From the NCBI GenBank assembly GCA_045649505.1, contig JAZRQA010000061.1:7235-71234 (forward strand): 64,000 bases of DNA, given 5' to 3'. Origin of the DNA: Acutalibacteraceae bacterium (GTDB lineage Bacteria > Bacillota > Clostridia > Oscillospirales > Acutalibacteraceae). Positions 7,866-46,992 of the stretch are shown in pieces (position 1 is the stretch's first letter; each line of letters begins with the position of its first letter). The notes below the pieces were generated by a model. It was not told where the DNA came from, ran no database searches, and saw only the letters and a list, made by a program, of their open reading frames with translations. The position numbers were made by a program, and so were the translations under genes.

Positions 7866-10800
7866 ATGAAAAAGTTAGTTGCATTGGTACTGTCAGTTGT
7901 ATTAATGATTTCAGTTTTACCGCTTAATGCTTTTGCAATGGATTGGGACTCTATTGTTAGTATTTCTTTTGCAGATACATATGTTTATGATGGAATGCAA
8001 GAGGACGGCGGCAAGTTTGAACAATTTTATGTAAAAATTATAACGACCTTTGAAGATGGTAGTACATCTGAGGAAGACCGTATTGCTTATAGAAACGGTG
8101 GGGTTGAGGTTAATTGGGGAACATTATATTTATCTGATAATCAAGACACAGAAACTTGGGAAGTTGGCAATACTTATCAAGTTACAGGCACTGTGGGAAG
8201 TTTTACAAATACATTTAACGTTGAAGTACGTGAAAACCCAATTCAAGAAATATCTATCGACGATTTTTGCATTATAAAATCTGATGAGTATTTTTCAGAA
8301 GGAAATGGCGAAGTCTATAACATCTACAACTTAATGGGATATTATCGCCCTTATTATGTTACATATAAAGACGGAAGTAGTACACCGGTTTATGGACCTT
8401 TTTCAACTGGTGAATACACTTCGGTTGATTTAATTACGACCTGTGTAGTTCCTTATGAGGACTGGGAAAGCGGAAACACCTATGAAGTAATGGGAACATT
8501 ATTAGGAGTAAGCACTACATTTAATGTAACTGTACTCGAAATTGAAAGTATCGAAATCGAAGATGTGGAATGCATCGAAAATTTCAATGGTTATATGGCA
8601 GGGTATTGGGATGAAAATGATAACTATATCGAGAATGCTTGGTTTGAGTATTATATCTCACCGGAAAAAATCACTATAGAGTTTACTAACACCTCAATTA
8701 CCGGTGATTTGTATGAAATAAGTGAATTTATAGGGTTATATCCTAACTGCTACTCTGATCAGGCCTACGAAAATCAATGGGGTCTTGGCAATCACACCGC
8801 TACAATAAACATTTGTGGTTATGAGCAAAATTATAATGTTAAGGTAGTCGAAACACCTATTAAAGATATAATAATTGATGATATAACCTATATTGAAGGC
8901 ACAAATCGATGGAATGATGGTCCGAATTATTATGAGTACTATATCAATCCCGAAACTCTGATGGTAATTTTAAAAGACGATACCGTTATAACAGGTACAT
9001 ATAACGATGTTTGTGAACAATTAGGATATTATGGTGATTGCAGTTCGGATCAATCTTATGAGAATCTGTGGGGTGTTGGTGAACATAAGGCTACTATTAA
9101 TCTAATGGGTTATGTGAAAGAATATTCTATCAATATTATAAAATCACCAATTAGCAGTATTGAAATTGAAGATATTGAAATACTTGAGTGTACACATGGC
9201 TATTATAATGATAAAGAAAATTATATGTATACTTCTTTCTCACCGACATTTAGTGTTACCTTTTCTGATGGCAGTGTGAAATCGGGATTAACTGAAGGAA
9301 TAACTATAGATGAAGAATACTATAGCTTAGAAATTAGAGACTATACAGATCAATATGTTTCGCCTTGGGTTGTAGGTAATACATACGAAATTATAGGTTC
9401 TGTTTTAGGTGTTAGTGATACATTTAATGTAACTATAACTGAAAGTCCCGTGGTTAGCATAGAAGTTGAAGACGTTACCTGTATTGAGGGTACAAGAGGC
9501 TACTATATTATTGATGACGCCGGAAATTACTATGAGTACACCGATATTTATATGTATCCGAATTATTCGGTTATACTGAAAGATGGCACTGAATTGGAAG
9601 CAGCATTTCATTCACCTTACGAAGGCTATATGGGTATGGGTGAATATGGAGTATTAATAGACGGTCAAATTTATGATATTAGTAATATAACCGATAACCA
9701 AAATGAACAACACTGGAGTGTTGGAACGCATACGGCAACAGCAGAGTTTTTAGGTGCTACAGATGAATTTAATGTTATAATAACCGAAAGCCCTGTTGAA
9801 AGTGTTAGGGTTGAAGATATAACGGTAATTAATGGTATAGACTCCTATTATAATGGTGATTTTGATTATTACAATCTGTATCCCACATATACCGTTACTT
9901 TCAAAGACGGAACCGAAAAGACATTCACGAATGGAACAGGAACAGCTTTAGACGGAAATTATTTTAGTTATTTAGATGTTCATTATAATCAATGGGAAGC
10001 GCCATTTGAAACCGGAGAAACTTATCAAATCGTCGGAAATTTTGGTTTAGCAACAGACACTTTTGAGGTTTCGGTAGTGGAAAATCCGGTTGAGAGTATC
10101 GAAGTTATAAGTGAGCCTAACAAGACTGAATATTTAGTTGGCGAATATTATGATTTAAAGGGTATGACCATACGGATTCATTATGATGATAGCACTTATG
10201 AGGATATAAATATCGAAAGTACTTGTAATGCGAATGCAGTCGGATTTGGTGTCTTGGCCTATTATTCTAACAAACTGCAAAAATTTGGTTATTTATCTTT
10301 GCCTGACGGTTCTTTTGATACTGTCGGCCAACAAGCAATAGAAATTGAATTATTTGGAAAAACCTGTGAACTGAATGTTACAGTTGAAGAAAACCCGATT
10401 GAAAGCATTTCTATTAGAGAAGATGCTGATAAATCTATCATAATTACCGTAAACAATATGGGCGGCACGAGTTATGATATGAAAATATTAGATATAACTT
10501 ATCTTTGGTTTGAAGACAATGTCGCGTATACTCCAATTTTTACAGATAAAGGAATTTTTGATGCAGCAATATTTGATGATGAGGGAAGCATTGCTATAGG
10601 ACTGGGAGATGTCTATTCAGAAGATATAATTAAAAGCAATACTCTTACCGGAAGTGAGTGGTACGAAGTTGTAAAGCTTATTAGCAATAATTTGGAAATG
10701 CCGCTCATAATGTTGAATTCTGATATAGGGTCTTTTGCAGGCAAAATTACCGCTGACAATATTGATGAAATTATTAAAGCTGCAGGCTATATGGATAATA

Positions 10801-37041: not shown

Positions 37042-37070
37042 TTGACAAACAAAAAGCACTGTGTTACAAT
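37042..37070 (+). promoter_or_regulatory. Sigma-A type promoter of T-box leader 1
   Basis: TTGACA, 17-nt spacer, TG-n-TACAAT. Confidence 0.65.
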
Positions 37071-37076
37071 ACGAAA

Positions 37077-37353
37077 AAATATAAAGGCAATGACGAAGAC
37101 GGTTTAGTTTTTCGGTTTTCAGAGAATCGGCGGTTGGTGCAAGCCGATAACCTACAAACTTTGTAACCCATCCCTTCCGAGCCGGAGGTAAAAAAGGCGT
37201 TTCGCTTAGTAGATATCTCCCGTGATTGCTGCGTAAAGGCATAGGAATTGTAAGATTCCGAGAGTGGCAGTTTTTACTGCAATTTGAGTGGTACCGCGGA
37301 TGTGAATTATCACACTCGTCTCAAAGAAATTGAGACGGGTGTTTTTTATTTTT
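37077..37353 (+). promoter_or_regulatory. T-box riboswitch leader 1 (specifier read as AUC, Ile)
   Basis: Stem I has a GA motif (AATGA..GA), an AGAGA bay and a GGTGCAA distal loop. T-box core is AATTTGAGTGGTACCGCGG (37281-37298). Terminator spans 37312-37340 with a T-run. ATC at 37170-37172 lies just 5' of the lower helix. Confidence 0.9.
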
Positions 37354-37378
37354 TAACCTGTCGAAAGGTGTGAGAAAA

Positions 37379-39646
37379 ATGTCAACAGTAGAAAATAAAA
37401 AATTATTAGAGGTGGCGGCGCGTATTCGCGAAATGCGCGAAATCTGCTCGCTTAGTACCGAAGAAATGGCCGAAAAGACCGAGGTCAGCGTAGCCGAATA
37501 CGAGGCTTATGAGGCAGGAAAACAGGATTTCCCCTTTACCTTTATTCATAAATGCGCCCTTGCCTTTAACCTTGGAATTTCCGACCTGCTTGAGGGCCAC
37601 AGCGCCAACCTTTCCTCTTATACCGTTACCCGCAAAGGGCAAGGACAGGAGACAGCCAAGGAGGAAGGAATAAGTATTCAGAACTTGGCTCCCCTTTTCA
37701 GAAAGAAAATTGCCGAGCCTTATTGGGTACGCTATGACTATGACGAAAGTCTTCAAAACAAGCCTATTCATCTGACCAAGCATTCAGGTCAGGAGTTTGA
37801 CTTTGTTATGAGCGGTCGACTTAAAATTCAAATCGGTGATAATATTGAATATTTAAGCGAGGGTGACAGCATTTATTATAACTCCTCCACCCCTCACGGT
37901 ATGATAGCCGTTGACGGCAAAGAGTGTCTTTTTGTTGCCGTTGTTCTTCCCGGTGAGGATGAAAGCGAGCCCGCCGCAAGAAATACCATTATGTCGATGC
38001 ACACCTCCACCAAAAGGCTTGTGAGCGATGAATTTATCACCACGGCGGAGAACGAAAAGGGTTATCTTGAAAAGATTGACTTTAAAAATGAAGACCGCTT
38101 TAACTTTGCCTTTGATGTGGTTGATGCCATTGCAAAGAAGGACCCCGAAAAGCTTGCTATGCTTCATCTTGATAAAAACAAGGTGGAACGCCGCTTTACC
38201 TTTAATGATATGAAGCGCGCCTCTAACCAGTGCGCCAACTACTTTAAATCCCTCGGTATCAAAAAGGGTGACAAGGTTATGCTTGTACTCAAGCGTCATT
38301 ATCAGTTCTGGTATGCAATTCTTGCTCTGCACAAGCTTGGCGCAATAGCTATTCCTGCAACAAATCAGCTTGTTGCTCACGATTTTGAGTACCGCTTTAA
38401 CAGCGCCGATGTTAGCGCCATTGTTTGTACTGCTGACGGCGATGTTGCAAATCAGGTAGATTTAGCCCAGAGCACAAGCGCGACCTTAAAGACCAAGATC
38501 CTTGTGGGTGGCGAAAAAGAGGGCTGGCATAATTTTGATGAGGAATATCCTCTGTATTCAGCCCACTACTATCGTGATGAAAATACCGCCTGTGGTGATG
38601 ACCTTATGCTGATGTTCTTTACATCAGGCACCACAGGCTATCCAAAAATTGCCGCGCACAGCTATAAATATGCTTTAGGGCATTACATAACTGCAAAATA
38701 CTGGCACGGCGTGAGTGAAGGCGGACTTCATTTTACAATCTCAGAAACAGGTTGGGGCAAAGCCCTTTGGGGCAAGCTTTACGGACAATGGCTGTGCGAG
38801 GGAGCGGTGTTTACCTATGACTTTGACCGCTTCGCCGCAAGTGATATTTTGCCTATGTTCGCAAAATATAATATAACCACATTCTGCGCGCCCCCAACAA
38901 TGCTTAGAATGATGATAAAAGAGGATATCTCAAGGTATGACCTTTCCTCCATAAAGCATATGACCACTGCAGGTGAGGCTTTAAACCCTGAGGTTTACCG
39001 TCAGTTCGAAAAGGCAACGGGGCTTCAGATAATGGAAGGCTTCGGTCAGACCGAGCTTACCCTTGTTATTGCAAACCTTATGGGCGGCTCTCACAAGCTT
39101 GGCTCAATGGGAAAACCTACTCCCCTTTATGATGTTGATATTCTTGATCCTGACGGTAATCCAGTTGAGGACGGTGAAACAGGCGAAATTGTTGTTAAGA
39201 CAAGTGATAAGGTGCCCTGTGGACTGTTCAGCGGATATTACAAAAATCAAGAAAAAACCGACGAGGTATGGCACGACGGCTATTACCACACAGGAGATAC
39301 CGCCTGGCGTGATGAGGACGGATTCATCTGGTATGTGGGCAGAGTTGATGATGTTATCAAATCTTCGGGTTACCGTATAGGACCCTTTGAGATTGAAAGC
39401 GTTATAATGGAATTGCCTTATGTCCTTGAATGCGGCGTTTGCGCGGCACCTGATGAGGTGCGTGGTCAGGTAGTTAAGGCAAGCATTGTTCTGGTTAAGG
39501 GCACGAAAGAGTCCGATGAACTTAAAAAAGAGATACAGGATTATGTTAAGAATCACACTGCGCCCTATAAGTATCCGCGTATTGTTGAGTTCAGGGAGTC
39601 TTTGCCTAAGACGATAAGCGGTAAAATTCAGCGAAACAAGCTTTAA
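37379..39646 (+). CDS. XRE-HTH + cupin + medium-chain (ACSM/MACS-like) AMP-forming acyl-CoA synthetase fusion
   Basis: HTH_3 at aa ~10-72. Cupin at aa ~80-190 (GQEFDFVMSG..GDSIYYNSSTPHGM). Ligase from nt ~38090 (FNFAFDVVD, FFTSGTTGYPK, YHTGD, GYRIGPFEIE, SGKIQRNKL). Confidence 0.85.
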   Translation: MSTVENKKLLEVAARIREMREICSLSTEEMAEKTEVSVAEYEAYEAGKQDFPFTFIHKCALAFNLGISDLLEGHSANLSSYTVTRKGQGQETAKEEGISIQNLAPLFRKKIAEPYWVRYDYDESLQNKPIHLTKHSGQEFDFVMSGRLKIQIGDNIEYLSEGDSIYYNSSTPHGMIAVDGKECLFVAVVLPGEDESEPAARNTIMSMHTSTKRLVSDEFITTAENEKGYLEKIDFKNEDRFNFAFDVVDAIAKKDPEKLAMLHLDKNKVERRFTFNDMKRASNQCANYFKSLGIKKGDKVMLVLKRHYQFWYAILALHKLGAIAIPATNQLVAHDFEYRFNSADVSAIVCTADGDVANQVDLAQSTSATLKTKILVGGEKEGWHNFDEEYPLYSAHYYRDENTACGDDLMLMFFTSGTTGYPKIAAHSYKYALGHYITAKYWHGVSEGGLHFTISETGWGKALWGKLYGQWLCEGAVFTYDFDRFAASDILPMFAKYNITTFCAPPTMLRMMIKEDISRYDLSSIKHMTTAGEALNPEVYRQFEKATGLQIMEGFGQTELTLVIANLMGGSHKLGSMGKPTPLYDVDILDPDGNPVEDGETGEIVVKTSDKVPCGLFSGYYKNQEKTDEVWHDGYYHTGDTAWRDEDGFIWYVGRVDDVIKSSGYRIGPFEIESVIMELPYVLECGVCAAPDEVRGQVVKASIVLVKGTKESDELKKEIQDYVKNHTAPYKYPRIVEFRESLPKTISGKIQRNKL

Positions 39647-39662
39647 TTTTAATAAAAAAGTA

Positions 39663-39692
39663 TTGACACAAAGCCCACACTTATGATAAAAT
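39663..39692 (+). promoter_or_regulatory. Sigma-A type promoter of T-box leader 2
   Basis: TTGACA, 18-nt spacer, TG-n-TAAAAT. Confidence 0.55.
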
Positions 39693-39698
39693 ACTATA

Positions 39699-39996
39699 AA
39701 AATTGATAAAGGCTTTGACGAAGAGGGCATAATTTACCCCCTTGCCTTACAGAGAGATGGCGTTTGGTGCAAGCCATTGGCAAGAAATTATGTTTGTAGC
39801 TTCCGAGTCGGGAGAAAGAAAGGGGCGGCTTGCTCTGAGTAGAATCTTCCCGTGATTGCTGCGTAAAGGCATAGGAATTGTCAGATTCCGAGAGGGGCAG
39901 TTTTAAACTGCAATTTGAGTGGTACCGCGGGTCAACTGAAACTTTTCAGCGCTCGTCTCAAAGTCATAACTTTGGGACGGGTGTTTTTTTCGTCCC
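39699..39996 (+). promoter_or_regulatory. T-box riboswitch leader 2 (specifier read as GUA, Val)
   Basis: Same architecture as leader 1. Has AGAGAG, GGTGCAA, core AATTTGAGTGGTACCGCGG (39912-39930) and a terminator at 39952-39990. GTA at 39796-39798 is followed by G and then the CTTC lower helix. Confidence 0.9.
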
Positions 39997-40014
39997 GGGA
40001 AATGGAGAAAATGT

Positions 40015-42306
40015 ATGGAACAAATTACAGGGCTTGATTTTAAAATCAAGGAAATGGCGTCCCGTATCAGGGAGCTTCGAGAGCTTGAGGGCTTAACCAC
40101 CGCCCAGATGGCTTTGAAAACCGATATTAGCGAAGGTGAATATATAGAGTGTGAGTCGGGCAAAAAGGATTTGAACTTTGCCTTTATTTATCGTTGTGCA
40201 ATGGCGTTGAGCGTTAATGTTACCGATATTATCGAAGGTCACTCTCCTACACTTAAATCCTATACCGTTACCCGCTTCGGCGCAGGTCAGAAGGTTTCAC
40301 AGGCTCACGGTATGACCTATTATAACCTTGCTTATGCTTTCCGCGACAGAATAGCCGAGCCTCTTTATGTTCGCAGTGTTTACGACGAGAATGCCGAAAA
40401 CACAAAGGATATTGAGCTTACCACCCACGCAGGTCAGGAGTGCGACCTGATTATCGAGGGTAATCTTATGGTTCAGATTGGTGAGCACAGGGAGATTTTG
40501 GGCCCAGGTGACAGCATCTATTTTGATTCTGACACACCTCACGGTATGATAGCCGTTGGCGGTAAAGACTGTATTTTTTATGCCATTGTTCTTAATCCCA
40601 CAGGTGAGCCTATACCCGAGCTTACCACAAGGCAGGCGGTGAGAGAAAATCACAACGCCAAAAGAGATACCAAGAACCGTATATATAAAAAGTATATTGA
40701 TGTAGTTGAGAATGAAAACGGAACGCCTACCTCTATCACCTTTAAGAATACCGAGAAGTTCAACTTTGCTTTTGACCTTGTTGATGCTTTAAGCGAGCGC
40801 GAGCCTGAAAAAATGGCAATGTTGCACATTTCCCGAGATGGTGATGAGCGCCGTTTTACCTTTAAGGATATGAAAAAAGCAAGTGCCCAATGCGCTAACT
40901 ACTTTAAATCCCTCGGCATTAAAAAGGGCGACAGAGTTATGCTTATTTTAAAGCGTCACTATCAATTTTGGTTTGCAATGCTGGGTCTTAATAAGCTTGG
41001 CGCAATAGCTATTCCCGCACCTAATCAGCTTTTGGACCATGACCTTGAATACCGATTTAATGCGGCAGGGATTGACACAGTTATCTGCACCGCTGACGGT
41101 GATGTTGCAAGACAGGTAGATATTGCCGCCGCTAAATGCGATACAATACGTAATAAACTTATTGTAAACGGAAGCAGAGAGGGCTGGCGCAGTTTTGACG
41201 ATGAGTACACCCTTTTCAGTTCCCATTTTGAGCGTAATGAGGACTCACCCTGCGGTGATGACCCGATGCTTATGTTCTTTACCTCGGGTACTACGGGATA
41301 TCCCAAGATTGCAACCCATAACCACAAATATCCGCTGGGACACTTCCACACCGCCAAATACTGGCACGACGTTGACCCTGACGGACTGCACTTTACCATC
41401 TCGGATACGGGCTGGGCTAAGGCAATGTGGGGCAAGCTTTACGGACAGTGGCTGTGCGAGGCGGCAACCTTTGTTTATGACTTTGACCGCTTTGATGCGG
41501 CAGAAATTCTGCCCATGTTTGCAAAGCATAAGATAACCACCTTCTGCGCGCCGCCCACAATGCTTCGTATGATGATAAAGCAGGATATTTCAAAATATGA
41601 TTTCTCCTCTGTTAAGCATATGACCACTGCAGGTGAGGCTTTAAATCCTGAGGTATACCGTCAGTTTGAAAAGGCAACGGGACTGCAGATTATTGAAGGC
41701 TTCGGTCAGACCGAAAGCACTATGATTATAGGTAATATGGTTGGTGCTTCCCATAAAATCGGTTCAATGGGCAAACCTGCCCCTATTTATAATGTTAAGA
41801 TTGTTGACCCCGAAGGTAATGAGGTTGCCGTAGGCGAAACTGGTGAAATTGTTGTTGATATTTCAAACGGCGCGCCCTGTGGACTCTTTACAGGCTACTA
41901 CCGTGACGAGGCCAAAACAAAAGAGGTTTGGCATGACGGCTTCTATCATACGGGAGATACCGCCTGGAAGGATGAGGACGGCTTCTTCTGGTATGTTGGC
42001 CGTGTAGATGACGTTATCAAGTCCTCAGGCTACCGCATTGGTCCCTTTGAAATTGAAAGCGTTATTATGGAATTACCTTATGTTCTTGAATGCGGCGTTT
42101 GCGCCGCACCCGATGAAGTGCGCGGTCAGGTAGTTAAGGCAAGCATTGTTCTTGTTGATGGCACCGAGGGTACTGATGAACTTAAAAAAGAGATACAAGA
42201 GTATGTTAAAAAGCATACTGCGCCCTACAAATATCCGCGAATCGTTGTATTTAAGGATTCTCTGCCCAAGACGGTAAGCGGAAAGATACAAAGGAACAAG
42301 CTTTAA
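40015..42306 (+). CDS. XRE-HTH + cupin + medium-chain AMP-forming acyl-CoA synthetase fusion (paralogue of 37379..39646)
   Basis: Same three-part architecture. HTH-cupin module spans nt 40015-40596 and the ligase starts at ~40753. The C-terminal ~90 aa are nearly identical to the upstream paralogue. Confidence 0.85.
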   Translation: MEQITGLDFKIKEMASRIRELRELEGLTTAQMALKTDISEGEYIECESGKKDLNFAFIYRCAMALSVNVTDIIEGHSPTLKSYTVTRFGAGQKVSQAHGMTYYNLAYAFRDRIAEPLYVRSVYDENAENTKDIELTTHAGQECDLIIEGNLMVQIGEHREILGPGDSIYFDSDTPHGMIAVGGKDCIFYAIVLNPTGEPIPELTTRQAVRENHNAKRDTKNRIYKKYIDVVENENGTPTSITFKNTEKFNFAFDLVDALSEREPEKMAMLHISRDGDERRFTFKDMKKASAQCANYFKSLGIKKGDRVMLILKRHYQFWFAMLGLNKLGAIAIPAPNQLLDHDLEYRFNAAGIDTVICTADGDVARQVDIAAAKCDTIRNKLIVNGSREGWRSFDDEYTLFSSHFERNEDSPCGDDPMLMFFTSGTTGYPKIATHNHKYPLGHFHTAKYWHDVDPDGLHFTISDTGWAKAMWGKLYGQWLCEAATFVYDFDRFDAAEILPMFAKHKITTFCAPPTMLRMMIKQDISKYDFSSVKHMTTAGEALNPEVYRQFEKATGLQIIEGFGQTESTMIIGNMVGASHKIGSMGKPAPIYNVKIVDPEGNEVAVGETGEIVVDISNGAPCGLFTGYYRDEAKTKEVWHDGFYHTGDTAWKDEDGFFWYVGRVDDVIKSSGYRIGPFEIESVIMELPYVLECGVCAAPDEVRGQVVKASIVLVDGTEGTDELKKEIQEYVKKHTAPYKYPRIVVFKDSLPKTVSGKIQRNKL

Positions 42307-42971
42307 TGAAGGAATTTAAACGTTTAACTTTACTTTGCGGGCATTACGGCAGCGGCAAAACAAATGTTGCGGTTAATGTTGCATTTGAGCTTAAAAAAGT
42401 GTATAATAATGTAGCCGTTGCGGATTTGGATATAGTTAACCCCTATTTTCGCGCAAAGGATTCCCGTAAGGATTTTGAGCACAAGGGCATTCGCCTTATC
42501 TGCTCGGAATATGCCAACACAAATGTTGACATTCCTGCCTTACCCGCGGATATCTACACCATTACGGTAGACAAAAGCATGTACACCGTACTTGATATCG
42601 GCGGCGATGACCGCGGCGCCTACGCCCTTGGAAGAATTGCTGATGATATTAAGGCGGAAGACAACTACGAGATGCTTATGGTAATAAACCGCTACCGTCC
42701 GCTTACCCCCGACGCGCAAAGCACTCTCGAGGTTATGCGGGAAATTGAGGCGGCGTGCAAAATCCCCTTTACGGGACTTGTTAATAATTCAAACCTCGGT
42801 GAGCTTACCGCGGCAAGCGATGTGCTTGAAAGCATACTCTATGCAAATGAGGTGTCAAGGCTTTCGGGGCTACCCGTGGTTATGACAACGGTAAATGAAA
42901 AACTGTATTGTGAGCTTGAGGACAGGGTGGAGAATTTATTTCCCCTTACTCTGCAATCCAAGTTGATATAA
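42306..42971 (+). CDS. P-loop NTPase of unknown function (SIMIBI/MinD-CooC-like)
   Basis: 221 aa. N-terminal GHYGSGKTN Walker A, hydrophobic strand plus DIGGDD as a Walker-B-like element. TAATG overlap with the ligase stop. Confidence 0.5.
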   Translation: MKEFKRLTLLCGHYGSGKTNVAVNVAFELKKVYNNVAVADLDIVNPYFRAKDSRKDFEHKGIRLICSEYANTNVDIPALPADIYTITVDKSMYTVLDIGGDDRGAYALGRIADDIKAEDNYEMLMVINRYRPLTPDAQSTLEVMREIEAACKIPFTGLVNNSNLGELTAASDVLESILYANEVSRLSGLPVVMTTVNEKLYCELEDRVENLFPLTLQSKLI

Positions 42972-42988
42972 TTTAAGGAGCGATGAAT

Positions 42989-43195
42989 ATGGCAAAGCTT
43001 ACATTTAAAACAGACCTTTGTAAGGGCTGCGGGCTGTGTGTTGATGCCTGCCCGAAAAATCTGCTGTGTCTGGCACCCGATAAGATAAATAAAAAGGGTC
43101 ACCACCCAGTGGAAATAACCGATCAGAATGCCTGTATTGGCTGCGCTTTTTGCGCTACTATGTGCCCTGATTGCATTATTAAGGTAGAAAGGTAG
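42989..43195 (+). CDS. 2x[4Fe-4S] ferredoxin (delta subunit of 2-oxoacid:ferredoxin oxidoreductase)
   Basis: CKGCGLCVDACP and CIGCAFCATMCP motifs. GGAG lies 9 nt upstream of ATG 42989. Confidence 0.85.
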   Translation: MAKLTFKTDLCKGCGLCVDACPKNLLCLAPDKINKKGHHPVEITDQNACIGCAFCATMCPDCIIKVER

Positions 43196-43206
43196 GGAAA
43201 AAGGAT

Positions 43207-44274
43207 ATGTCTGATAAGGTACTTATGAAGGGCAATGAAGCCATTGCGGAAGCCGCTATTATTGCAGGCTGCCGACACTATTTCGGCTATCCCATTACTC
43301 CCCAAACCGAAATCGCCGCATATATGGCAAAAAAAATGCCTAAAATAGGCGGAACATTTTTACAGGCAGAAAGTGAAATTGCCGCAATAAATATGGTCTA
43401 CGGCGTTTCCTCTACGGGTAAACGCGTTATGACATCATCCTCAAGTCCGGGTATTGCGCTTAAGAGCGAGGGACTTTCCTATCTCGCAGGCGCAGACCTT
43501 CCCGCACTTGTTGTAAATGTTCAGCGCGGCGGCCCCGGTCTTGGCGGTATTCAGCCCAGTCAGTCTGATTATTTTCAGGCTACCCGTGCAGGCGGTCACG
43601 GTGATTTCCGTATGATTGTTCTTGCCCCCGCATCCGTTCAGGAGATGGCAGAGCTTACCGTTAAGGGCTTTGAGCTTGCGGATACATACAGAATGACTTC
43701 TATGATACTTGCTGACGGTACAATGGGTCAGATGATGGAGCCCGTTTCCCTTGACCTTGAGGTTGCTCCCGCTCCCGAAAAGCCTTGGGCTACTACAGGC
43801 ACCAAGGGGATACGCCCCCACAATATTGTAAATTCACTTTTCCTTGCTCCCGAAGAGCTTGAGAAGTTTAATTTTGACCGTTTTGAGCGTTATAAATACA
43901 TTGAAGAAAACGAAGCAATGTATGAGGAATATATGATGGAGGATGCCGAAATTTGCATAGCTGCCTTCGGTATTGCCGCCCGTGTTTCTAAAAACGCTAT
44001 AAACGAGGCAAGAAAGCAGGGTATTAAGGTTGGTATGATTAGACCTATTACCCTTTGGCCCTTCCCTAACGCCCCATTTGAAAAAGCTGCAGATAAGGTA
44101 AATTCGATTATATGCGTTGAGCTTTCAATGGGTCAGATGATCGAGGATGTACGCCTTGCCACACACTGCAAGGTTGACGTAACCCTTTGCAACCGTGTAG
44201 GCGGTATGATACCCTCTCCCGAACAGGTGCTTGAGGCTATAAAAGTGGCGGCTAAAAACGGAGGTGCAAAATAA
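43207..44274 (+). CDS. 2-oxoacid:ferredoxin oxidoreductase alpha subunit (VOR/KOR type)
   Basis: 355 aa. Motifs MKGNEAIAEAAI.AGCR.YFGYPITPQ and QAESEIAAINM are typical of the four-subunit OFOR alpha subunit. Confidence 0.85.
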   Translation: MSDKVLMKGNEAIAEAAIIAGCRHYFGYPITPQTEIAAYMAKKMPKIGGTFLQAESEIAAINMVYGVSSTGKRVMTSSSSPGIALKSEGLSYLAGADLPALVVNVQRGGPGLGGIQPSQSDYFQATRAGGHGDFRMIVLAPASVQEMAELTVKGFELADTYRMTSMILADGTMGQMMEPVSLDLEVAPAPEKPWATTGTKGIRPHNIVNSLFLAPEELEKFNFDRFERYKYIEENEAMYEEYMMEDAEICIAAFGIAARVSKNAINEARKQGIKVGMIRPITLWPFPNAPFEKAADKVNSIICVELSMGQMIEDVRLATHCKVDVTLCNRVGGMIPSPEQVLEAIKVAAKNGGAK

Positions 44275-45029
44275 TGGTAGTTTTTGATAAACCTAAGGCT
44301 TTAACAGATGTGCCTATGCACTACTGCCCCGGTTGCACACACGGTATTGTTCACCGCCTTGTTGCCGAGGTTATTGATGAGCTCCAAATTGAGGGCAAGA
44401 CCATTGGTATTGCGCCTGTTGGTTGCTCTGTTATGGCTTATAACTATTTTAACTGTGATATGATTGAAGCAGCTCACGGACGCGCTCCTGCAGTTGCTAC
44501 GGGCGTTAAGCGTTCCGACCCTGACAACCACATCGTGTTTACATATCAGGGTGACGGTGACCTTGCTTCAATCGGTATGGCTGAAACCGTGCATAGCGCG
44601 GCAAGAAACGAGAACATCACCGTTATATTCATTAACAACGCAATTTACGGTATGACAGGCGGTCAGATGGCACCTACCTCTCTGCCCGGTCAGGTTACTC
44701 AAACCTCACCCTATGGCCGTGATGTAAAGCAATGCGGTTACCCCGTTAAGGTTTGCGAAATGCTTAGCGAGCTTGAGGGTCCCGAATATCTTGAGCGCGT
44801 TACCGTAAACAATGTTAAGAATATTAAAAACGCCAAGAAGGCTATAAAGAAGGCCTTCCAGAATCAGATAGACGGCAAGGGCTTCTCCCTTGTAGAGGTA
44901 GTTTCGACCTGTCCCACCAACTGGGGTATGACTCCGCAGAAGGCACTCAAATGGATAGATGACAATATGCTGCCCTACTATCCTTTGGGCGTTTATAAAG
45001 ACCGTTCTGCCCAAAAGGAGGAGAAATAA
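44274..45029 (+). CDS. 2-oxoacid:ferredoxin oxidoreductase beta subunit (TPP-binding)
   Basis: YCPGCTHG cluster/TPP region and GDGD..NNAIYGMTGGQ motif. ATG overlaps the alpha stop. Confidence 0.85.
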   Translation: MVVFDKPKALTDVPMHYCPGCTHGIVHRLVAEVIDELQIEGKTIGIAPVGCSVMAYNYFNCDMIEAAHGRAPAVATGVKRSDPDNHIVFTYQGDGDLASIGMAETVHSAARNENITVIFINNAIYGMTGGQMAPTSLPGQVTQTSPYGRDVKQCGYPVKVCEMLSELEGPEYLERVTVNNVKNIKNAKKAIKKAFQNQIDGKGFSLVEVVSTCPTNWGMTPQKALKWIDDNMLPYYPLGVYKDRSAQKEEK

Positions 45030-45568
45030 TGAGTACCAAAAATTTTCTGTTTTCCGGTTTCGGTGGTCAGGGTATTCTCTTTGCAGGTAAGTTCCTTGCC
45101 TACAAGGGTCTGTATGAAGGTAAAAATGTAAGCTGGCTGCCCTCCTACGGCCCCGAAATGCGCGGCGGTACCGCAAGCTGCTCGGTTATTGTAAGCGAAG
45201 AAGCAGTTGGCTCGCCGATAGTATCAAACCCCGATATTCTGGTTGCAATGAATCTGCCCAGCCTTGATAAATTTGAAAATGATATTGTATCAGGCGGTCT
45301 TGTGTTTGCCGATTCCGCTCTTATTGAGCGCAAGGTAAACCGTGACGATATTACCGCTTATTACATTCCTGCAACCCGTCTTGCAGGTGAAAACGGTATG
45401 CCCACGCTTGCTAATATGATTATTATGGGCAAGATTTTAAAGGTGCTCGGCGAGTATGATGAGGAAAGCCTTAAAGCTACAATGGCAAAGGTTATCCCCC
45501 CGAAGCACGCAGATATGCTTGAAGTAAACCTTAAGGCACTTAAAATCGGTGCCAATTATGAGGAGTAA
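45029..45568 (+). CDS. 2-oxoacid:ferredoxin oxidoreductase gamma subunit
   Basis: 179 aa. GFGGQGILFAGK motif. ATG overlaps the beta stop. Confidence 0.85.
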   Translation: MSTKNFLFSGFGGQGILFAGKFLAYKGLYEGKNVSWLPSYGPEMRGGTASCSVIVSEEAVGSPIVSNPDILVAMNLPSLDKFENDIVSGGLVFADSALIERKVNRDDITAYYIPATRLAGENGMPTLANMIIMGKILKVLGEYDEESLKATMAKVIPPKHADMLEVNLKALKIGANYEE

Positions 45569-45573
45569 TTAAA

Positions 45574-46635
45574 ATGGAAATTTCTATTACAAAAACAACT
45601 GCGCCCAAGGTTAAGCCCGAGGCTTCAACCCTTGGTTTTGGTAAATTCTTTACCGACCATATGTTTATGATGGACTTCTCCCGCGAGGAAGGTTGGCACG
45701 ATGCAAGAATTATCCCCTTTGCCAACATCTCTTTGCACCCTGCCTCCACCGTACTACACTACGGCTCCGAAATATTTGAGGGCTTAAAAGCCTACCGTCG
45801 CGCAGACGGCAAGGTTCAATTGTTCAGACCTATGGAAAACATCCGCAGAATGAACAACTCTGCTGACAGACTTTGTCTGCCTCAGATTCCTGAGGATATG
45901 GCCCTTGAGGTATTAACTAAATTTGTAGAGCTTGAGCAGGATTGGACGCCCAGCGCAGAGGGTACCTCCCTCTATCTTCGTCCCTTTATGTTCGGCAATG
46001 ACGAATCCCTCGGTGTTCACGCCGTTCATAACGCAACCTTTGTTATAATAGCTTCCCCTGTTGGCAGCTATTATAAAGAGGGTATAAACCCTGTCAAGAT
46101 TATGATTGAGGATGAGGATGTCCGTGCGGTACGCGGCGGTACAGGTTATGCCAAATGCGGCGGTAACTATGCCGCATCCAACCGTGCAGGTGAGCGTGCC
46201 GAGCAAAAGGGTTATTCTCAGGTGCTCTGGCTTGACGGTGTTGAGCGTAAATATATTGAGGAGGTTGGCGCCATGAACGTTATGTTCAAAATCGGCGGCG
46301 AGGTTATCACTCCTATGCTTTCAGGCTCCATTCTCCCCGGTATTACAAGAAAGTCCTGTATTGAGGTTCTTAAAAAGGCGGGCTACACCGTAAGCGAGCG
46401 ACTGCTCAGCATTGATGAGCTTGCCGCCGCTATGGAAAACGGTACCCTTGAGGAGGCATGGGGTTGCGGTACTGCCGCAGTTGTTTCCCCCATTGGCGAG
46501 CTTTGCTACAAGGATAAGAAATACACCGTTAATAACGGTGAGATAGGCAAGGTTACCCAGATGCTTTACGATACCTTGACAGGTATTCAGTGGGGTAAAA
46601 TTGAGGACACATTTAATTGGACCTACGAGATATAA
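45574..46635 (+). CDS. ilvE: Branched-chain amino acid aminotransferase (class IV PLP, long form)
   Basis: 353 aa. Motifs include FTDHMF, HYGSEIFEGLKAY, KCGGNYAAS and ILPGITR. Confidence 0.9.
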   Translation: MEISITKTTAPKVKPEASTLGFGKFFTDHMFMMDFSREEGWHDARIIPFANISLHPASTVLHYGSEIFEGLKAYRRADGKVQLFRPMENIRRMNNSADRLCLPQIPEDMALEVLTKFVELEQDWTPSAEGTSLYLRPFMFGNDESLGVHAVHNATFVIIASPVGSYYKEGINPVKIMIEDEDVRAVRGGTGYAKCGGNYAASNRAGERAEQKGYSQVLWLDGVERKYIEEVGAMNVMFKIGGEVITPMLSGSILPGITRKSCIEVLKKAGYTVSERLLSIDELAAAMENGTLEEAWGCGTAAVVSPIGELCYKDKKYTVNNGEIGKVTQMLYDTLTGIQWGKIEDTFNWTYEI

Positions 46636-46639
46636 TCTT

Positions 46640-46675
46640 AAAACCCTTTTGTTTGCGCAAAAGGGTTTTTCTTTT
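46640..46675 (+). terminator. Intrinsic terminator ending the ligase-VOR-ilvE operon
   Basis: AAAACCCTTTT-N8-AAAAGGGTTTT followed by a T-rich run. Confidence 0.8.
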
Positions 46676-46719: not shown

Positions 46720-46992
46720 AAATTTTTGAAATGCTATGAAGGAATTATTTTTGATTCTCCCCTTCCTTTCAGAGAGCTGCTGTTTGGTGCAAGGCGGTAG
46801 GAAGCGAACCGAAAAGTCTCATTCCGGAGCAGAGCGGCTGAAAATTAAGTTAAGCTGCTACGGTTTGCCCCGTTATCTTGGCAGAAGGCTTGTTAGAGCC
46901 TTAGTGAGTGACCGTGTTATACGGTAATCAGGGTGGTACCGCGAATTATTATTCGTCCCTGAGGTTGGATGTCCCGGCCTCAGGGACTTTTT
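46720..46992 (+). promoter_or_regulatory. T-box riboswitch leader 3 (specifier read as CUC, Leu)
   Basis: GA motif (TATGA..GGA), AGAGAG, GGTGCAA, core AATCAGGGTGGTACCGCG (46926-46943). Terminator is GTCCCTGAGG-N13-CCTCAGGGAC plus T5 (46955-46992). CTC at 46818-46820 is followed by A and then the TTCC lower helix. Confidence 0.9.

Follow-up and report, generated by a model that had tools for sequence, protein, structure and literature searches.

A conserved tandem pair of T-box cassettes predicted to gate branched-acid activation in gut and rumen Clostridia, and its mosaic evolution

The window analysed here, a stretch of 64,000 nucleotides (nt) from an Acutalibacteraceae bacterium (assembly GCA_045649505.1, contig JAZRQA010000061.1, positions 7,235 to 71,234), carries two head-to-tail paralogous units, each made up of a T-box leader and an acid:coenzyme A (CoA) ligase gene and each provided with its own promoter and terminator. 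We interpret the locus as an ancient tandem pair of transcription-attenuating T-box cassettes, belonging to an uncultured gut or rumen bacterium, that would control branched-acid activation for isoleucine and valine synthesis and that has evolved as a mosaic, an explanation to which we assign a probability of about three in four; the switch mechanism, the substrates, and the pathway direction are inferred from sequence and genomic context. The features of the two units, in window coordinates, are as follows.

37042-37070, + strand: unit 1 promoter, TTGACA-17-TACAAT with a TG extension, 11/12 matches; the site is kept upstream of orthologous leaders
37081-37326, + strand: T-box leader 1 (Ile type), RF00230, 90.3 bits, E 1.2e-19, model positions 1-219
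37170-37172, + strand: predicted specifier AUC of leader 1; the next base is C, at 37173
37279-37298, + strand: T-box core of leader 1, including the UGGU bulge
37312-37342 (37312-37349 in a wider delimitation), + strand: intrinsic terminator of leader 1, 13 pairs then a T run; minimum free energy (MFE) -23.9 kcal/mol, z -3.76
37379-39646, + strand: ligase 1, 755 amino acids (aa); HTH_3 + cupin head (aa 1 to about 200) fused to a predicted AMP-forming short branched-chain acyl-CoA synthetase
38756-38758, + strand: codon of the ligase 1 pocket residue Gly460
39663-39692, + strand: unit 2 promoter, TTGACA-18-TAAAAT with a TG extension; kept in orthologues
39706-39963, + strand: T-box leader 2 (Val type), RF00230, 83.1 bits, E 9e-18, model positions 1-219
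39796-39798, + strand: predicted specifier GUA of leader 2; the next base is G
39910-39929, + strand: T-box core of leader 2
39948-39985 (39948-39992 in a wider delimitation), + strand: intrinsic terminator of leader 2, 17 pairs then a T run; MFE -29.8 kcal/mol, z -3.74
40015-42306, + strand: ligase 2, 763 aa, the paralogous HTH-cupin::acyl-CoA synthetase
41416-41418, + strand: codon of the ligase 2 pocket residue Ala468

An earlier note on this DNA had described two head-to-tail paralogous leader-plus-ligase units with diverged Stem I and specifier, diverged helix-turn-helix (HTH) and cupin modules, near-identical 3' halves of the leaders, and no terminator between ligase 1 and leader 2, and this description holds throughout. 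The two proteins are 66% identical over 754 aa, with the HTH-cupin part the most diverged (about 45 to 50% aa identity, the lowest of the protein). The specifiers differ, AUC against GUA, and over their 80 nt the leader tracts 37219-37298 and 39849-39930 show 3 substitutions and 1 indel, which confirms the count of about four differences in the note. The stretch from the ligase 1 stop at 39646 to leader 2 contains no terminator-like site. Hence, transcripts from promoter 1, which is of sigma-70 type, must meet leader 2 once they have passed leader 1. Leader 2 is additionally served by its own strong, conserved promoter, which starts 16 nt past the ligase 1 stop.

Both leaders span the whole T-box model (positions 1-219) with a likeness far above chance, the matches being found via E-value reporting below the curated Rfam gathering cut-off. 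Stem I contains a kink turn (K-turn) with UGA...GA flanking a GAAG/CUUC helix, and both AGAGA and GGUGNNAG are conserved. Single-sequence MFE folding of Stem I was uninformative (z +0.6 and -0.5), and its structure was taken from comparative folding of 48 leaders. In this alignment, double changes were recorded at 28 of the 45 predicted pairs, distributed over Stem I, Stem II, an extra hairpin, and Stem III and reaching up to 25 per pair in the Stem I helices, while the T-box sequence AAUUUGAGUGGUACCGCG was invariant. A UGGU bulge is present in both leaders. The 5' strand of each terminator overlaps the 3' strand of the antiterminator, with CUCAAA complementary to the UUUGAG of the T-box, so that the two folds are mutually exclusive, and both terminators are strong by folding (z about -3.7).

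These leaders share with known transcriptional T-boxes (RF00230; Bacillus subtilis tyrS, ileS, valS, and ilv-leu leaders) the Stem I K-turn, specifier loop, AGAGA and distal-loop motifs, Stem II, IIA/B, Stem III, the conserved T-box sequence with its UGGN bulge, and the mutual exclusion of terminator and antiterminator. They differ in the controlled gene, an acid:CoA ligase rather than a tRNA synthetase, a canonical biosynthetic gene, or a transporter, in scoring just under the gathering threshold, and in several structural details. The extra hairpin (GGAAUUGUNAGAUUCC, 37243-37258 and 39873-39888) follows the stem IIA/B region and precedes Stem III; the Rfam model has no counterpart to this insertion, which covaries strongly, with 15 to 18 double changes per pair. 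The specifier loop (leader segments 37098-37177 and 39724-39803) is unusually compact, with AC or AG on the 5' strand and N-codon-N on the 3' strand. A covarying 4-bp helix sits where the Rfam consensus places the AGUA/GAA S-turn, and C frequently follows AUC.

For specifier assignment, orthologous loci were drawn from 40 relatives and 80 species-level genomes, which are gut and rumen metagenome-assembled genomes labelled Acutalibacteraceae, Oscillospiraceae, Ruminococcus, or Clostridia. The specifier was taken to be the triplet that precedes the conserved CUUCCGAG by four bases; the first-pass pattern also matched a second, CTTCCGAG-like site in Stem III of about 12 leaders, and a distance filter was then applied. 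The upstream leader carried ATC in 60/60 cases at the first pass and in all 64 distinct leaders after filtering. At the first pass, which covered 80 loci, 47 downstream leaders read GTA and 3 read GTC, with G or A as the next base in every leader except one; after filtering, each of the 47 distinct downstream leaders had GTA or GTC. Across the 48 aligned leaders, the specifier columns form the 3' side of the internal loop between the K-turn-proximal GAAG/CUUC helix and the covarying 4-bp helix. The specifiers also match their gene context, in that a branched-acid ligase, VorB, and IlvE lie downstream of the AUC and GUA leaders, and the genome encodes a tRNA-Val(UAC) whose discriminator base A73 fits the UGGU bulge, the N of UGGN being U. 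The C that follows the leader 1 codon had raised a worry over the Ile call. This worry is resolved, given that AUC is invariant and a pyrimidine at the next position is common in the family (A 29, C 22, G 9 among the 60 upstream leaders). The predicted Ile (AUC) and Val (GUA) assignments are thus secure at the level of comparative sequence.

Comparison of orthologous loci revealed two units, in tandem and widespread. The pair occurs in every same-genus genome whose contigs permit viewing and extends to two or more further families of the order (genomes G028 and G010). A T-box lies within 450 nt of the ligase 1 stop in 52 of the 61 loci with enough downstream sequence, and its specifier is GTA or GTC in 46 of these 52; the pair is therefore found in at least 46 related gut and rumen species-level genomes. 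In more distant Oscillospirales (loci L019 and L021-L026) the unit is split into a T-box, an HTH-cupin gene of about 190 aa, and a ligase gene of about 550 aa. These split units keep the ATC specifier, or GTA in L023, and both fused and split forms of the cassette exist. Whole-gene synonymous divergence between the two ligases is high (dS about 1.5; proportion of synonymous differences, pS, 0.65). The earlier note had entertained a recent event, which we rejected on this divergence and on the broad presence across families; by these measures, the duplication is ancient and spans several Oscillospirales families. The same note's idea that a unit was duplicated, re-coded, and its enzyme retuned fared better, as the specifier difference is kept in 64 Ile-type and 47 Val-type leaders and the one ligase residue that is strictly type-specific falls in the first shell of the acyl pocket (see below).

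Identity between the units is unevenly distributed, and the segments concerned are listed below.

37219-37298, + strand: 3' part of leader 1, homogenised with its leader 2 counterpart 39849-39930; covers the stem IIA/B region, extra hairpin, Stem III, and T-box core
38879-39028, + strand: predicted conversion tract A, ligase 1 codons 501-550; ligase 2 counterpart 41539-41688
39269-39643, + strand: predicted conversion tract B, ligase 1 codons 631-755 (C-terminal subdomain); ligase 2 counterpart 41929-42303

Segment trees gave clean Ile-type and Val-type clades for codons 1-250, whereas for codons 631-755 the paralogues paired within G028, within G010, and within the genus of the window. Quartet site counts for genomes G000 and G002 changed in the same direction, from 159 orthology-type and 15 concerted-type sites in codons 1-250 to 15 and 29, respectively, in codons 501-550 plus 631-755 (Fisher test of the N-terminal part versus the tracts, p 1.4e-14 for all positions and 1.3e-4 for third positions only). 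Five of six genome comparisons returned all-position Fisher p values of 1e-7 to 1e-15, with a weaker value (4e-5) for the closest relative, G004. Within the tracts, third-position identity was 0.62 between paralogues and 0.52-0.54 between same-genus orthologues; elsewhere the order was reversed, at 0.46 and 0.55-0.60, respectively. In maximum-likelihood (ML) trees the Ile-type clade received 100/100 support for the N-terminal part (codons 1-250), was weakly rejected for the middle part by the approximately unbiased (AU) test (p 0.03), and was rejected for the tracts (log-likelihood difference, delta lnL, 86; AU p 0.00016).

The leaders follow a comparable pattern. Both leaders were scored in 44 genomes. 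A nearest-neighbour test of the 3' part was swamped by closely related species, and quartet site counts were used instead. Promoter and Stem I yielded 10727 orthology, 3367 concerted, and 2459 control sites, while the 3' part yielded 5855 concerted, 4866 orthology, and 1286 control sites; for the window against 43 genomes, the 3' part counts were 301 concerted, 91 orthology, and 36 control. Compensatory variants of the extra hairpin and Stem III are common to both leaders of a genome and differ across genomes, for instance GGAAU/AUUCC in the genus of the window and GAAGU/ACUUC in G028, and in locus L060 the leader 3' halves are nearly identical. Segment trees, quartet counts, third-position identities, and the AU test thus agree with the ongoing gene conversion proposed in the earlier note, and recurrent conversion between the units is well supported by these alignments. 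The accompanying claim that the last 90 or so codons are almost identical even in DNA is overstated, since identity there is 88.9% in the protein and only 83.7% in the DNA (44 differences, third-position identity 0.61). With pS in the C-terminal tract still at about 0.4 to 0.6 (0.41-0.68 in sliding windows), the last coding-tract conversion in the window is, on sequence divergence, not very recent. As judged from these comparisons, promoter, Stem I with its specifier, the HTH-cupin head, and the pocket neighbourhood remain type-specific, and the leader 3' half and codons of about 501-550 and 631-755 are homogenised.

Both proteins contain HTH_3, Cupin_2, AMP-binding (E 3e-64), and AMP-binding_C (E 3e-20) Pfam domains, and the catalytic lysine is kept, with Lys609 of Escherichia coli Acs aligned to Lys749 in ligase 1 and Lys757 in ligase 2. 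The best NCBIfam match for both is MbcS (NF047394), of which they are, by profile score, relatives and not equivalogs. The closest solved structure is MacsMa of Methanosarcina acetivorans (3ETC, E 2e-189), with ligase domain identities of 53% (unit 1) and 51% (unit 2). In Acs, specificity is controlled by Val310, Thr311, Val386, and Trp414, all of them no more than 4 A from the acetyl group (PMC8511477). Trp414 is replaced by Gly556 in unit 1 and Gly564 in unit 2, a Trp to Gly change typical of medium-chain enzymes (PMC10455477), and Val310 aligns with Gly460 in unit 1 and Ala468 in unit 2. MacsMa prefers 2-methylbutyrate (PMC10455477), and MbcS of Staphylococcus aureus is selective for 2-methylbutyrate and isobutyrate and handles isovalerate poorly (PMC10026030), the first two acids being those predicted here. 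Further likenesses to MacsMa and MbcS are the Gly for Acs Trp414 and a conserved alternative Trp (KYW), and MacsMa shares with unit 1 the Gly at the Acs Val310 position. Unlike these two enzymes, the ligases of the window carry an HTH-cupin head, T-box control, and linkage to Vor and IlvE, and their substrates are predictions from homology, the pocket residue, and genomic context.

When 65 Ile-type and 49 Val-type proteins were aligned, nine positions were strictly type-specific. Eight of these fall in the HTH-cupin head (positions 44-115), and the ninth, the only one in the ligase domain, is the first-shell pocket position occupied by Gly460 (Ile) or Ala468 (Val) in the motif TGW[G/A]K. Relaxed thresholds placed 19 of 23 type-specific positions in the head and four in the ligase domain (460, 463, 475, and 562). 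Gly accompanied ATC and Ala accompanied GTA in all 65 and 49 units, and both L012 and L023, the latter a distant split-gene locus, conform to this link. The Gly to Ala change would add a methyl group to the pocket wall, matching the one-carbon difference between the two acids.

The head itself gave only a weak HTH match in a sequence search of the PDB. Its AlphaFold model (56 sequences; mean predicted local distance difference test, pLDDT, 84) has five helices that lead into a cupin barrel, and the top Foldseek matches were 1Y9Q, a Vibrio HTH_3 regulator (E 3e-14), and HppE. By Pfam and by the model, the head has the make-up of two-domain HTH_3 + cupin proteins (1Y9Q; HppE-like fold), in which a helical HTH-like domain at the N terminus precedes the barrel. 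His135, Glu139, and His173, encoded in ligase 1 within 37781-37795 and at 37895-37897, are invariant in the 56 Ile- and Val-type heads and look like a cupin metal site. The concentration of type-specific residues in the head suggests a role in recognising some Ile- or Val-specific feature.

The genes that follow ligase 2, and the next T-box, are arranged as follows.

42306-46635, + strand: genes behind the Val T-box, encoding a P-loop protein, a ferredoxin, VorB, a thiamine pyrophosphate (TPP) beta subunit, a gamma subunit, and IlvE
46640-46669: terminator 3' of IlvE
46727-46963: third T-box of the window, specifier CUC (Leu), the sole one reported at the Rfam gathering threshold

This gene order is conserved in G028 and G010, and Vor and IlvE are single copy in the genome. 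Neither ilvC nor ilvD was found in the genome (96.75% complete), and among 41 genomes ilvC was present in 1 of the 17 relatives that carry the fused ligase, compared with 15 of the 24 remaining genomes (Fisher p 0.0003). As for the Leu T-box, the gap from IlvE to a LeuA-like gene in G028 (L035, reverse complement 9868-9912) is just 44 nt, so this leader cannot exist there. Elsewhere in the genome of the window, a T-box with an apparent UUC (Phe) specifier (contig C10:4227-4478, 104.7 bits) stands directly 5' of an open reading frame for a PaaK-like phenylacetate-CoA ligase, with a gene for an IOR-type oxidoreductase subunit just upstream. Here too an acid:CoA ligase appears gated by a T-box, the same logic applied to phenylalanine.

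We propose the following mechanism. In leader 1, uncharged tRNA-Ile would pair with the AUC of the Stem I specifier loop, and in leader 2 uncharged tRNA-Val(UAC) would pair with GUA; in either case the free ACCA end would pair with the UGGU of the T-box bulge and favour the antiterminator over the strong terminator. Each leader would thereby gate a predicted AMP-forming short branched-chain acyl-CoA synthetase of the MacsMa/MbcS type with an HTH-cupin head, the Ile unit most likely activating 2-methylbutyrate and the Val unit most likely isobutyrate. The acyl-CoAs would then be reductively carboxylated by Vor and transaminated by IlvE to Ile and Val, a route that would stand in for the missing ilvC/ilvD pathway. 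In the classical physiology attributed to Allison and Bryant, rumen bacteria reportedly make branched-chain amino acids from branched-chain volatile fatty acids by such a reductive carboxylation, with the same succession of acid, acyl-CoA, 2-oxoacid (by a ferredoxin oxidoreductase), and amino acid as predicted here. Unlike that work, which is said to have defined no genes or regulation, the window offers a candidate gene set with codon-addressed RNA control.

Four other explanations were weighed. Read one base out of frame, leader 1 would present UCN (Ser) and leader 2 UGU (Cys); the T before GTA is invariant, so that TGT followed by A is conserved too, and the shifted triplets of leader 1 (TCA, TCC, TCG) are all Ser codons. 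However, the leaders are structurally homologous with the codon in identical alignment columns, GTA to GTC is a synonymous Val change, and the gene surroundings belong to branched-chain amino acid metabolism. A +1 frame moreover gives UAG in leader 2 and a -1 frame variable CAU/UAU in leader 1; out-of-frame Ser/Cys specifiers were rejected on these grounds, and we regard their likelihood as close to negligible. Purifying selection on conserved RNA and protein parts might likewise account for the similar tracts with no conversion at all, as all members of these families conserve the T-box core and the C-terminal subdomain of the ligase, and pS in the C-terminal tract of the window remains substantial. 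Yet selection would have to explain why tract paralogues are nearer to each other at third positions than same-genus orthologues are, with the reverse elsewhere, why tracts cluster by genome in three separate lineages, and why compensatory leader stem variants go genome by genome. Third-position identities and the AU test on the tracts led us to reject this explanation, which is very improbable.

Two further alternatives concern function. The acyl-CoAs could feed branched-chain fatty acid and lipid synthesis, the role of the nearest named family, MbcS, in S. aureus (PMC10026030), or the pathway could run in the catabolic direction. Predicted T-box control keyed to the charging of tRNA-Ile and tRNA-Val, putative co-transcription with Vor and IlvE, the lack of ilvC and ilvD, and the inverse association with ilvC across relatives all speak for amino acids. 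AMP-forming ligases, furthermore, work in the acyl-CoA-forming direction, and we consider a lipid or catabolic role improbable. It is also conceivable that both ligases take 2-methylbutyrate and isobutyrate alike, in which case the duplication would only split Ile and Val regulation and the Gly/Ala difference would have little effect. MbcS accepts both acids (PMC10026030), type-specific ligase positions are few among the 114 units, and large ligase stretches are swapped between the paralogues. Nevertheless, the Gly/Ala split follows the specifier without exception in these units and in L023, the residue occupies a first-shell pocket position (PMC8511477), and the pocket-flanking segments (codons 251-500 and 551-630) mostly retain orthology signal, leaving undifferentiated substrates an unlikely account.

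Several observations weigh against our explanation of paired Ile and Val cassettes. The leaders fall 3 to 10 bits under the RF00230 gathering score of 93, their scores being lowered by inserted elements, namely the extra hairpin and a long loop in Stem II. The ligases score 445 and 442 bits against the MbcS equivalog cut-off of 850. A distant Ile-type (ATC) split unit, L025 of G018, has Met at the pocket position (SGWMK), and with just one strict and four relaxed type-specific positions in the ligase domain the substrate ranges may overlap. Some third-position concerted-type sites could reflect genome-specific base composition, although the control class and the clean N-terminal signal argue that composition is not the main cause. 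tRNA-Ile(GAU) was not found in the assembly, in which no rRNA operon was binned either; the assembly likewise lacks a 16S-like sequence and tRNA-Leu(GAG), and the rRNA operon is probably unbinned. Finally, Vor (ferredoxin, VorB, beta and gamma subunits) and IlvE lie behind the Val T-box only, though all three branched-chain units would need them, an arrangement that does not account for a rise of Vor and IlvE under Ile (or Leu) limitation alone.

A bolder extension of the paired-cassette explanation, possible but doubtful in our estimation, treats the pair as a natural "chimeragenesis" experiment in which conversion erases neutral differences and the parts that remain type-specific mark the minimal specificity determinants. 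These determinants may be Stem I with its specifier, the head, with its 19 of 23 type-specific residues, and the Gly/Ala pocket switch. The head may then be a second, protein-level sensor co-specialised with the T-box, sensing Ile versus Val or their keto or branched acids, for example for feedback control of the ligase.

The principle of T-box duplication with a changed specifier is already known. Vitreschak et al. (2008) reportedly described T-box duplication with changed amino-acid specificity. Duplication with a specificity change has been documented by Wels et al. (2008; PMC2494555), and numerous such duplications and changes have been noted (PMC3766115). As in those cases, a T-box and its gene were duplicated here and then diverged to a new specificity; unlike them, the copies stay adjacent, in tandem in at least 46 species-level loci, and a mosaic could be measured in which specificity-neutral parts are converted and specificity-bearing parts excluded from conversion. 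Our literature searches turned up no account of a T-box acting on this class of ligase, nor of the conserved tandem cassette or the mosaic of conversion and exclusion.

What is new is an intact, tandem, and widely conserved cassette predicted to control an acid:CoA ligase. In gut and rumen Clostridia without ilvC and ilvD, it would link the sensing of tRNA charge to the salvage of branched acids from fermentation. Mosaic conversion narrows the candidate specificity determinants to the specifier, one pocket residue, and a sensor-like head, each of which can be tested by swaps. Fibre-degrading rumen and gut bacteria have long been known to depend on branched-chain volatile fatty acids, and the locus would offer a genetic handle on this dependence.

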